Part shown: positions 2,963 through 8,647 of the stretch, piece by piece
Position numbering within the stretch: position 1 is the first letter of the stretch
How the letters are laid out: the number at the start of each line of letters is the position of its first letter
Assembly (NCBI GenBank): GCA_964425505.1
Contig: CAYRME010000001.1
Location: 1 to 25,692 of the forward strand
Origin: an uncultured Candidatus Saccharibacteria bacterium
GTDB taxonomy: Bacteria; Patescibacteriota; Minisyncoccia; Minisyncoccales; PWPS01
Length of the DNA: 25,692 nucleotides
Reading direction: 5' to 3'
Translations under genes and position numbers: made by a program
Notes under the pieces: model-generated
Seen by the model: the letters and a program-made list of their open reading frames with translations, nothing else
Databases searched by the model: none
What the model was told of the DNA's origin: nothing

Positions 2963-3048
2963 GCTGCGGTGGCGGAATTGGTAGACGCGCATGGCTTAGG
3001 ACCATGTGGGGCTTTTGCCTCTTGGGAGTTCGAGTCTCCCCCGCAGCA
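2963..3048 (+). tRNA. tRNA-Leu (anticodon TAG), CCA not encoded
   Basis: Acceptor GCTGCGG/CCGCAGC-A, anticodon arm catgg-ctTAGga-ccatg, long variable arm, T-loop TTCGAGT. Confidence 0.96.
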
Positions 3049-3173
3049 CAATTTCTTAAGGGTTTTTACCATGAACCCTACGTGGTTCATGGCGAGTCCC
3101 TCCCCCGCAACAATTCCTTAAGAGTTTTTACCATGAACCCCACGTGGTTCATGGCGAGTCTCCCCCGCAGCAC
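3031..3173 (+). repeat. Two tandem 62-63 bp units, each with a 9-bp hairpin and a copy of the tRNA-Leu 3' end
   Basis: cgagtctcccccgcagca at 3031-3048 and 3156-3173, variant at 3093-3112; hairpins ccatgaacc-N6-ggttcatgg at 3069-3092 and 3132-3155. Confidence 0.93.
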
Positions 3174-7422: not shown

Positions 7423-7646
7423 TTGAAAAATCAAAAATCAAAATATTAAATAAGTCAAAATGCAAAGTTACTTAATCGCGAAGCGATTACAGTGAGCGAA
7501 GCGAACGGTTTGTAATGACAAGTATTTGTAATTTCCAATTTCCAAGTAATAAATTTCCAAACAAATTTTAATTTCCAATTGTTTAATTTCCAAAACAAGT
7601 TTGGAGTTTGGAAATTAGAATATTTTGGTCTTTGATTTTTGATTTT
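7423..7646 (+). repeat. Repeat family A copy (7514-7646) with a left 7-mer tract and inserted module D (7468-7518)
   Basis: Matches 922-1053 with one extra A and two C-to-T changes; left tract resembles 866-910; the 7468-7518 segment has an inverted relative at 20119-20169. Confidence 0.93.
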
Positions 7647-7660
7647 ATATTTTATATCTC

Positions 7661-7689
7661 TTGCATCTTTTTATGGCTTATATTATAAT
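7661..7689 (+). promoter_or_regulatory. Sigma70-type promoter for tRNA-Glu
   Basis: TTGCAT-17 nt-TATAAT about 50 nt upstream of the tRNA. Confidence 0.6.
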
Positions 7690-7740
7690 ACTTCTCCAGT
7701 TAAAAATAAAATTCGAATACCGAAATTCGAATTTTTAAAT

Positions 7741-7815
7741 GGCCCCGTCGTCTAGTCTGGCCTAGGACGCCGGGTTTTCATCCCGGTAACAGGGGTTCAA
7801 ATCCCCTCGGGGTCA
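7741..7815 (+). tRNA. tRNA-Glu (anticodon TTC), CCA not encoded
   Basis: Acceptor GGCCCCG/CGGGGTC-A, anticodon arm ccggg-ttTTCat-cccgg, T arm agggg-ttcaaat-cccct. Confidence 0.95.
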
Positions 7816-7822
7816 CAAATGC

Positions 7823-7855
7823 AAAGAACGGCCTCTTCTGGCCGTTCTTTTGTTT
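7823..7855. terminator. Bidirectional intrinsic terminator
   Basis: Perfect 11-bp stem aaagaacggcc-tcttct-ggccgttcttt plus T run, between convergent tRNA units. Confidence 0.8.
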
Positions 7856-7885
7856 GAAGTATAAGGGAGTCCTGCTCTCCTAAAG

Positions 7886-8164
7886 CGGCGGGAGTAAGGG
7901 AGTAGCACCTGATTGGGGTTCGGATGCTACTCCCTAAATTCGAACCCCTGGGTGTATTTTCACGATCCCGTAAAAGAGCGGTGGGTGCAGGATTCGAACC
8001 TGCAAGGGCTTGCGCCCGGCGGTTTTCAAGACCGCTGCCTTGCCAATTCGGCCAACCCACCGCCCTTTTACGGGATGCGTTACTAAAACCATTCTTGAAT
8101 GCAAGTCTCGTAAAATCCCTTTACGGGACAAGATCGCCCCGTTCGTCCGCTCCGGCATCCCGCC
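7886..8164 (-). pseudogene. Interrupted tRNA-Ser-like gene (outer frame) in three segments
   Basis: 5' half GGCGGGA-TG-CCGGAGCGGACGAACGG-G-GCGAT-CTTG (8164-8129); middle ATCGT...AGGGG-TTCGAAT (7966-7938); 3' end TCCCGCC-G (7893-7886) pairs perfectly with the 5' GGCGGGA. The variable arm and T-stem do not reconstruct cleanly. Confidence 0.7.
7979..8061 (-). tRNA. tRNA-Ser (anticodon TGA), nested in the outer interrupted tRNA
   Basis: Acceptor GGTGGGT/ACCCACC-G, anticodon arm gcggt-ctTGAaa-accgc, variable arm gggc-gcaa-gccc, T arm gcagg-ttcgaat-cctgc. Confidence 0.95.
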
Positions 8165-8175
8165 TAAATTAAATG

Positions 8176-8259
8176 CGGAGGAGGCGGGACTCGAACCCGC
8201 AAGCGGAGAACCGCTACGGATTAGCAATCCGCTGCCTTACCGATTCGGCGCACTCCTCC
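8176..8259 (-). tRNA. tRNA-Ser (anticodon GCT)
   Basis: Acceptor GGAGGAG/CTCCTCC-G, anticodon arm gcgga-ttGCTaa-tccgt, variable arm agcgg-ttct-ccgct, T arm gcggg-ttcgagt-cccgc. Confidence 0.93.
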
Positions 8260-8270
8260 TGTAATTTTTT

Positions 8271-8299
8271 ATTTTACCTTATTCTTCCCACCTTTTCAA
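8271..8299 (-). promoter_or_regulatory. Sigma70-type promoter for the tRNA-Ser cluster
   Basis: Minus strand TTGAAA-17 nt-TAAAAT ending 11 nt before tRNA-Ser(GCT). Confidence 0.6.
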
Positions 8300-8383
8300 T
8301 GCCCTTTTGTTCATTTCGGGACTGGATAGCAAGGTGATCTCTTTTAAAAAGCATCTTCTTTTATTATAATAAAGGAGTTTTAT

Positions 8384-8456
8384 GCGCCCGTAGCTCAGCG
8401 GATAGAGCGCTTCCCTGCGGAGGAAGAGGTCAGGGGTTCAAATCCTCTCGGGCGCA
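8384..8456 (+). tRNA. tRNA-Arg (anticodon GCG)
   Basis: Acceptor GCGCCCG/CGGGCGC-A, D arm gctcagcggatagagc, anticodon arm cttcc-ctGCGga-ggaag. Confidence 0.94.
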
Positions 8457-8503
8457 CAAATAATTGTCCTTCCACCTCTCCACCCCAAACTCAAAGATCA
8501 AAA

Positions 8504-8647
8504 ATCAAAGACCAAAATATTCTAATTTCCAAGCTCCAAACTTGTTTGGAAATTAAACAATTGGAAATTAAAATTTGTTTGGAAATTTATTACTTGGAAA
8601 TTGGAAATTACAAATACTTGTCATTTTGGCTTTTGCATTTTGCATTT
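8504..8647 (-). repeat. Repeat family A, inverted copy immediately upstream of recG
   Basis: 144/144 reverse complement of 900-1043. Confidence 0.96.

Follow-up and report, generated by a model that had tools for sequence, protein, structure and literature searches.

A hairpin in the T-loop of a decayed tRNA-Ser(UGA) gene as a probable shrunken remnant of a ~270-nt inverted-repeat element family of ultra-small bacteria

Introduction

The MITEs and palindromic repeats described in bacteria include the Correia elements of Neisseria, RUP and BOX of Streptococcus pneumoniae, and the REPINs. The Rickettsia palindromic elements (RPEs) are palindromic insertions that are tolerated inside genes of small-genome bacteria, RNA genes among them. 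In archaea, tRNA genes are interrupted by introns at non-canonical positions such as 59/60; cases are found in the Thermoproteales and reportedly in Aeropyrum pernix.

The DNA analyzed here, in the following called the window, is a stretch of 25,692 nt (contig CAYRME010000001.1, assembly GCA_964425505.1) from an uncultured Candidatus Saccharibacteria bacterium with a genome of 593 kb in 70 contigs, which is 96.9% complete. By this size and completeness it is taken to be an ultra-small, CPR-like bacterium. On its minus strand, a tRNA gene, the outer gene, is broken in the anticodon loop by a cassette with an inner tRNA gene and directly after the T-loop by a hairpin. We consider it probable, although with some reservation, that this hairpin is an internally deleted remnant of an element from a gene-less ~270-nt family which came to lie in a dead tRNA-Ser(UGA) gene. 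In the following, this interpretation is weighed against a template switch, a functional intron and a separate class of tiny hairpins.

Results

The hairpin is directly apparent on the minus strand. Immediately 3' of the T-loop TTCGAAT of the outer tRNA (7944-7938), the left arm AGGGAGTAGCATC (7935-7923) pairs with the right arm GGTGCTACTCCCT (7909-7897) over 13 bp, one of which is a G-U wobble, and the arms enclose a 13-nt loop, CGAACCCCAATCA (7922-7910). Compared with shuffled sequences, the fold reaches z = -4.1 as RNA and z = -5.7 as DNA, and none of 200 shuffles equalled it. Thus, the 13-bp hairpin that an initial annotation had placed after TTCGAAT was confirmed. The complementarity between loop and T-arm noted there holds as well: the loop sequence CGAACCCC (7922-7915) is the exact complement of the T-arm sequence GGGGTTCG (7948-7941) over 8 nt, and 10/11 positions match when the comparison is extended. 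Complementarity of at least 8 nt to the 60 nt upstream was obtained with 109 of 20000 shuffled loops (~0.5%). Also as annotated, TACTCCC is duplicated at the 3' junction, with copies at 7904-7898 and 7896-7890 of the same strand. A search for further copies of the hairpin in its own genome found none, so that it stands there as a single putative remnant.

The tRNA gene that carries the hairpin has visibly decayed. The segment 8164-7886 (minus strand) starts as a type II tRNA over 36 nt and ends with TCCCGCC-G. The 5' part (8129..8164, minus strand) comprises the acceptor strand GGCGGGA, the D-arm, the 5' strand of the anticodon stem and C-T-T-G of the anticodon loop, and nucleotides 1-28 of the gene are identical to the tRNA-Ser(CGA) of genome G037, with close counterparts in G005, G002 and G040. 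The decayed middle (7938..7960, minus strand), which was assigned by comparison with genomes G079, G099 and G352, consists of AAAA from the 3' side of the anticodon loop, TACACCC, the T-stem 5' strand AGGGG and the T-loop TTCGAAT; here, TACACCC is the sole remainder where the relatives carry a stem strand and the variable arm. At the 3' end (7886..7898, minus strand), the T-stem 3' strand CTTAC is followed by the acceptor 3' strand TCCCGCC and the discriminator G. TCCCGCC pairs 7/7 with 8164-8158, and the 3' end as a whole, CTTACTCCCGCCG, is identical in 12/13 positions to CCTACTCCCGCCG of the G352 tRNA-Ser(UGA) and of the outer 3' half in G099. In comparison with G079, G099 and G352, ~17 nt are gone from the outer gene, namely the 3' strand of the anticodon stem and the variable arm. 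The outer gene was called neither by ARAGORN, also with introns allowed, nor by the Rfam tRNA model at any threshold.

The best full-length comparison for the outer gene is the intact tRNA-Ser(UGA) of G352. Its acceptor, GGCGGGA/TCCCGCC, is that of the outer gene, and 3 nt separate it from the 3' end of a preceding tRNA-Ser(GCU), a neighbourhood also found in the window. On the basis of these comparisons, the outer gene is interpreted as a dead tRNA-Ser(UGA), a pseudogene whose job would be done by the inner gene. Each of the four serine anticodons has an intact tRNA-Ser gene in the genome: those for UGA and GCU lie in the window, that for CGA on contig 23 and that for GGA on contig 31. In the outer gene, AGGGG and CTTAC, the two halves of the T-stem, do not pair with each other, which we regard as a further sign of its decay, and the state before the insertion can apparently be reconstructed only in part. 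When metagenomes were scanned with a 20-mer of the outer 5' half for variants of the locus, six chance matches were obtained, all in GC-rich coding DNA, and neither an intact nor a variant copy was found.

In the outer genes of G079 and G099 as well as in the intact gene of G352 the T-arm is uninterrupted and without insert, and deletion of 7937-7899 (39 nt) from the window sequence restores TTCGAAT-CTTAC-TCCCGCC-G with canonical lengths. On both grounds we take the hairpin to be an insertion at or next to position 60/61 that is specific to the window genome among those compared. Its boundary can slide by up to 4 nt, since TTA is present on both sides. Two further assignments of the hairpin were tried, one to a plus-strand tRNA and one to an enlarged variable arm (GTAGC/GCTAC in G079); both were rejected, since the parts do not follow in collinear order. 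A promoter-like site (TTGAAA, 17 nt, TAAAAT; 8271-8299, minus strand) precedes tRNA-Ser(GCU), and one transcript therefore probably covers both outer halves, the inner tRNA and the hairpin; it would end near a hairpin at 7851-7823 that is common to the convergent tRNA-Glu.

An insert at this place might be a functional intervening sequence whose loop and arm pair with both exons in a guide-like manner and whose removal yields a working tRNA. In favour of this, 8 nt of the loop pair with the T-arm upstream, TACTCCC downstream is a possible partner of GGGAGTA, and the genome keeps an RtcB RNA ligase (506 bits). The host, however, lacks the anticodon loop, the 3' strand of the anticodon stem and the variable arm, so that no tRNA-Ser could be made from it, and all four Ser isoacceptors are encoded elsewhere in the genome. 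No match to the tRNA splicing endonuclease family PF01974 was found in the 96.9% complete genome, and four archaeal controls were positive. A bulge-helix-bulge motif was not seen on inspection; the junctions flank a continuous 13-bp stem and show no 3-nt bulges separated by 4 bp. The group I and group II intron models of Rfam gave no match anywhere in the window at gathering score, and none within 7600-8600 when E was raised to 10. Moreover, in the resulting pseudoknot, linkers of 5 nt would have to span helices of 13 and 8 bp, and the complementarity itself is generic to the element family described below. A functional intron is thus highly improbable, and the proposal of a removable intervening sequence was given up for a host that is unable to provide a tRNA a genome without splicing endonuclease, and a locus with neither bulge-helix-bulge motif nor group I or II intron match. 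As an observation in its own right, the RtcB ligase is full-length (C3:13969-15222, G000) in a 0.59-Mb genome without tRNA splicing endonuclease; RtcB ligases are common in bacteria.

The cassette in the outer anticodon loop (7961..8128, minus strand) contains the inner tRNA, a flanking helix and the end motif TCGTG (7965-7961, minus strand). The inner gene is a live tRNA-Ser(UGA) (8061-7978, minus strand) that is called by both ARAGORN and Rfam, and the flanking helix has 15 bp (8076-8062 / 7979-7965, minus strand). Window positions 7961-8164 (minus strand) were compared with locus L154, positions 294-494, of G079 and locus L155, positions 301-455, of G099. In G079, the genes for Arg(GCG) and Ser(GCU) are followed by an outer gene that is broken after CTTG. 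The interruption consists of CCCCGTAAGAAAGC, an inner tRNA-Ser(UGA) and CTTTCTTACGGGG-TCGCG, after which the outer gene continues with AAAA, ACAGT, the variable arm, GGGGG-TTCGAAT-CCTCC and TCCCGCC-G. In G099 the inner gene is kept, the right end reads ..TTAGGGGG-TCGCG and the outer 3' half GTAGG-TTCGAAT-CCTAC-TCCCGCC-G. At the same place, the window reads ..TTTTACGGGA-TCGTG-AAAA-TACACCC-AGGGG-TTCGAAT. Cassette ends homologous to those of the window (..TTACGGGG TCGCG AAAA..) are present in G079 and G099; the ends can be written as YCCCGTAAR.. / ..YTTACGGGR-TCGYG, and the insertion point after U34-G35 is common. The nesting of a live in a dead tRNA-Ser(UGA) is thus found in genomes of three different taxonomic families (window, G079 and G099), and no paper describing nested replacement tRNA genes was found in the literature.

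ATCGT was considered as the 3' strand of the outer anticodon stem and rejected, since the cassettes of G079 and G099 end in TCGCG at this place although the stems there are GCTG(T)/ACAGT. As TCGTG belongs to the cassette end, ATCGT is probably part of that end and its resemblance to a stem partner coincidental. Separately, when introns were allowed, ARAGORN proposed on contig C49 (1951-2141, G000) a tRNA-Phe(GAA) that is interrupted at position 39 by 97 nt. A normal tRNA-Phe is present on contig 19, and the C49 gene could be another interrupted tRNA or a false call.

To a BLAST search with the 91 nt of 7970-7880 against 400 genomes of the order, only G352, G238 and G322 responded, with matches that each start exactly at TTTAGGGAG. 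The similarity that supports family membership is short (E ~1e-3 per genome over 400 genomes), and the three matched genomes are interrelated, all of them belonging to one taxonomic family. The matched sequence is the terminus of a repeat, GGGAGTAGGATTCGAACCAGAATCAATTTAG ... CTAAATTGATTCTGGTTCGAATCCTACTCCC, with a length of 144-338 nt, mostly ~270 nt, which ends in inverted repeats of 25-31 nt and is present in several copies per genome. The copies are flanked by short AT-rich direct repeats of 3-5 nt (TTTA, TAAA, TAAAA, ATAA, TAG, TTA). With one copy as query, the family was detected in 37 of 401 genomes of the order; these belong to many taxonomic families, and four of them to the window's own genus. 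The copy number reaches ~8 in G238, in varied contexts.

Sixteen full copies share a fold in which a terminal helix of ~30 bp is combined with two arms, and 51 of the 84 predicted pairs show compensatory double changes. The sequence of the termini varies by copy, complementarity is kept, and a T-loop-like core, GGATTCGAACC, is always present. The termini resemble tRNA 3' ends, the core being the reverse complement of canonical GGTTCGAATCC. Relatives contain shortened copies (159 and 144 nt) as well as stubs of 35-60 nt with a single end, and in G238 unpaired termini are present. The ~1.5-kb flanks contain no tRNA at 34 of the 37 loci fetched; the remaining three represent two sites, whose nearest tRNAs are at distances of 22 nt or ~1.2 kb. 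Rfam reported only tRNAs, and no model of the family, in the window and in two loci with full copies. In the literature, we found no paper describing the ~270-nt family and none linking MITEs with these bacteria.

Furthermore, the predicted pairs of the family (loci L090, L091, L107 and others) include, in a tally on a strand that structure prediction itself favours, ~100 G-U versus ~25 A-C cells, which suggests that the fold may be selected on one strand, either as RNA or as single-stranded DNA. The window remnant has the same sense as the G-U-favoured strand of the family and lies on the tRNA-coding strand.

The hairpin was then aligned with the family termini. Its left terminus, GGGAGTAGCATCCGAACCCCAATCA (7910..7934, minus strand; assigned by BLAST and profile), covers arm and loop including CGAACCCC. 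By BLAST it is identical to the termini of G352 and G238 in 25/29 positions, and in register (7934-7910) to the left termini of G352 and of G004, a genome of the same genus, in 21/25 positions; CCCCAAT is common to the remnant and the G004 copy. When a profile of 28 termini was run over both strands of the 593 kb, the left terminus ranked first with 24.6 bits, and the next sites were reverse complements of real tRNA 3' ends with 23.3 and 20.9 bits. The inner 7 nt contribute +5.1 bits as compared to 2.7 or less for real tRNA ends, and the inner bases AATCA are family-specific and not tRNA-like. The right terminus GGTGCTACTCCC (7898..7909, minus strand), which corresponds to the right arm, is complementary to the left one as in every full copy; its boundary is ambiguous by 1-4 nt, and the C at its end (7898) could instead be part of the T-stem of the host. 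As terminal inverted repeats, the 13-bp arms match the family termini. TTA flanks the remnant on both sides (left copy 7935..7937, right copy 7895..7897, minus strand) as a candidate target-site duplication; full copies carry repeats of 3-5 nt, and a repeat of 3 nt may be due to chance.

The conserved interior of the family (two arms, ~245 nt) is absent, and the whole-family HMM had no match in the window genome. The copy is therefore filed as a family remnant and not as an intact member. A search of five genomes of the same genus with a terminus pattern at up to 3 mismatches found no copy. As a two-ended stub of 37 nt, the hairpin would represent the extreme of the shortening pattern observed in relatives. 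Over about 20 of its 25 nt, the left terminus resembles the 3' end of the host itself (17/20) no less than it does the family termini. Since tRNA 3' ends score nearly as high as the remnant (23.3 versus 24.6 bits), most of the profile score is non-specific, and the family assignment depends on AATCA, on the geometry of the arms, on the TTA flanks and on the terminal position of the match.

A possible second, smaller remnant, GGAGAGCAGGACTCCC (7865..7880, minus strand), lies between TTTA (7884-7881) and TTA (7864-7862). Over its first 11 nt it is similar to family termini, for instance GGAGAGTAGGA of G188, and it has the direct repeat ACTCCCTTA in common with the main remnant. Because its fold is no better than that of shuffles (z ~0), we list it as a candidate only.

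The likeness of the hairpin to the host's own 3' end could also have arisen without any mobile element. In that case, a template switch or fold-back repair would have placed in the T-loop an inverted copy of the tRNA's T-arm and 3' end as well as an additional, direct copy of CTACTCCC, and the resulting split repeat would fold as a hairpin. Indeed, GGGGTTCGAAT (7948-7938) joined to GCTACTCCCT (7906-7897) matches the reverse complement of 7935-7915 in 20/21 positions, the reconstructed host 3' end matches the tRNA-like 20 nt in 17/20 positions and hence as well as the family termini do, and the genome holds no other copy of the hairpin. This reading leaves unexplained the inner AATCA that the hairpin shares with the family termini, the TTA on both flanks and the start of the similarity at the exact terminal base of the family. 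It also needs two extra copies, one inverted and one direct, which are more alike mutually than to the host. We therefore keep the trace of template switching, which the initial annotation had offered, as the main rival and judge it unlikely.

The match between loop and T-arm is most likely a by-product of the tRNA-like ends of the family. Since the family core is the reverse complement of the T-loop consensus, an element whose core (..ATYCGAACC..) lies in opposite orientation to a tRNA would automatically be complementary to the adjacent T-arm. Among the 28 termini, which come from other genomes, 11 pair with the window T-arm over at least 8 nt (up to 10 nt), and all of these lie more than 1 kb from any tRNA. 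The additional two C's with which the match becomes perfect in the window (CCCC) are also present in the G004 copy, which lies outside any tRNA. These observations argue against the guide-like, exon-binding role that had been attributed to the loop. The check proposed with it, whether the loops of inserts track their own T-arm, was negative, as the same T-loop-like motif is found in both termini and in copies that are not linked to tRNAs. The doubled TACTCCC would have a similar origin, with one copy being the end of the element and the other the T-stem and acceptor of the tRNA, which resemble that end. Of the suggested tiny tRNA-targeting element, the insertion at ~60/61 and, probably, the nature of a small mobile element remain; targeting does not, given that the copies are mostly without tRNA (34/37 loci).

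In G352, the family terminus at positions 123-140 of locus L075 (contig C17) is identical in 18/18 positions to the T-loop-to-acceptor stretch of that genome's tRNA-Ser(UGA); no such identity to a tRNA was seen for the family termini in G238 and G322. Because of this identity, and because the window copy sits at 60/61 of the homologous gene, it is conceivable that the element uses its tRNA-like termini to locate tRNA 3' ends or to recombine with them, so that the pairing would be the footprint of a homology-guided entry. We regard this as quite improbable.

Elsewhere in the window (3031-3173, plus strand), two decayed tRNA-Leu 3' tails are each split after the TT of the T-loop by a hairpin, CCATGAACC..GGTTCATGG. 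It contains a GGTTC/GAACC motif and, compared by eye, has no sequence relation to the hairpin studied here. The splitting of these tails in the T-loop, together with the stem-closed cassette in the anticodon loop, could point to a distinct class of very small hairpin insertions in tRNA-gene loops which does not descend from the ~270-nt family and has become T-loop-like by convergence. Yet no sequence relation links the studied hairpin with the tRNA-Leu hairpin or with the cassette ends, and the 21/25 match to the family termini would be a coincidence. In addition, one genome for each of 185,579 species was scanned for the same 10+10-nt stem with any loop. The scan yielded only 20 unrelated hairpins from many phyla, as compared to ~6 expected by chance, none of them within ~2 kb of a tRNA. 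We thus consider a separate class of this kind improbable. A conserved family of the hairpin itself was also rejected, as the matches of the stem scan are unrelated and none is within ~2 kb of a tRNA.

According to the preferred interpretation, the 37-39 nt that separate the T-loop from the 3' strand of the T-stem would be the vestige of a strongly folded ~270-nt inverted-repeat element. Of its two termini, ~25 and ~12 nt would have been retained, and its ~245-nt interior would be gone, in parallel to the shorter and one-ended copies of relatives. The paired termini would then form the 13-bp hairpin and the inner part of the longer terminus its loop. We infer a transposition at TTA that was followed later by the internal deletion, in this order. 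The host, an ancestral tRNA-Ser(UGA), may have been dead before the insertion or may have become so by now. The hairpin would now be inert DNA, probably co-transcribed in the trailer of the tRNA-Ser operon, with no role in guiding or splicing.

Discussion

As a dead remnant, the hairpin alone changes little. More generally, loops that are complementary to an exon can follow automatically in bacterial tRNA loci from repeats with tRNA-like ends, and comparative evidence is therefore needed before they are interpreted as guides or introns. The locus adds one case of nested replacement tRNA genes and one case of a structured, apparently mobile ~270-nt family with tRNA-like termini in ultra-small bacteria. 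The family seems to decay to hairpins of a few dozen bases, which can be mistaken for new elements.

Like the archaeal tRNA introns at 59/60, the window locus has an extra segment in the T-loop region that pairs with an exon. Unlike these, it is found in a bacterium without splicing endonuclease, shows no bulge-helix-bulge motif and sits in a non-viable host tRNA. As with the exon-binding guides of group I and II introns, bases of the insert are complementary to both flanking exons; however, the 39-nt insert has no catalytic core, and its complementarity would stem from the T-loop-like core of the family. With the RPEs it shares a palindromic insertion inside a gene of a small-genome bacterium, but in the window the host gene appears to be already dead and the insert lies outside any working product.

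The closest resemblance is to MITEs and palindromic repeats such as the Correia elements, RUP, BOX and REPINs. Like these, the family is short and non-coding, has inverted-repeat ends and flanking duplications and is present in several copies per genome, in or beside genes and with internally deleted or one-ended derivatives. In contrast to them, the window copy is only 37 nt long and single in its genome, and the family keeps a three-part fold with termini that are variable yet complementary and resemble tRNA 3' ends.
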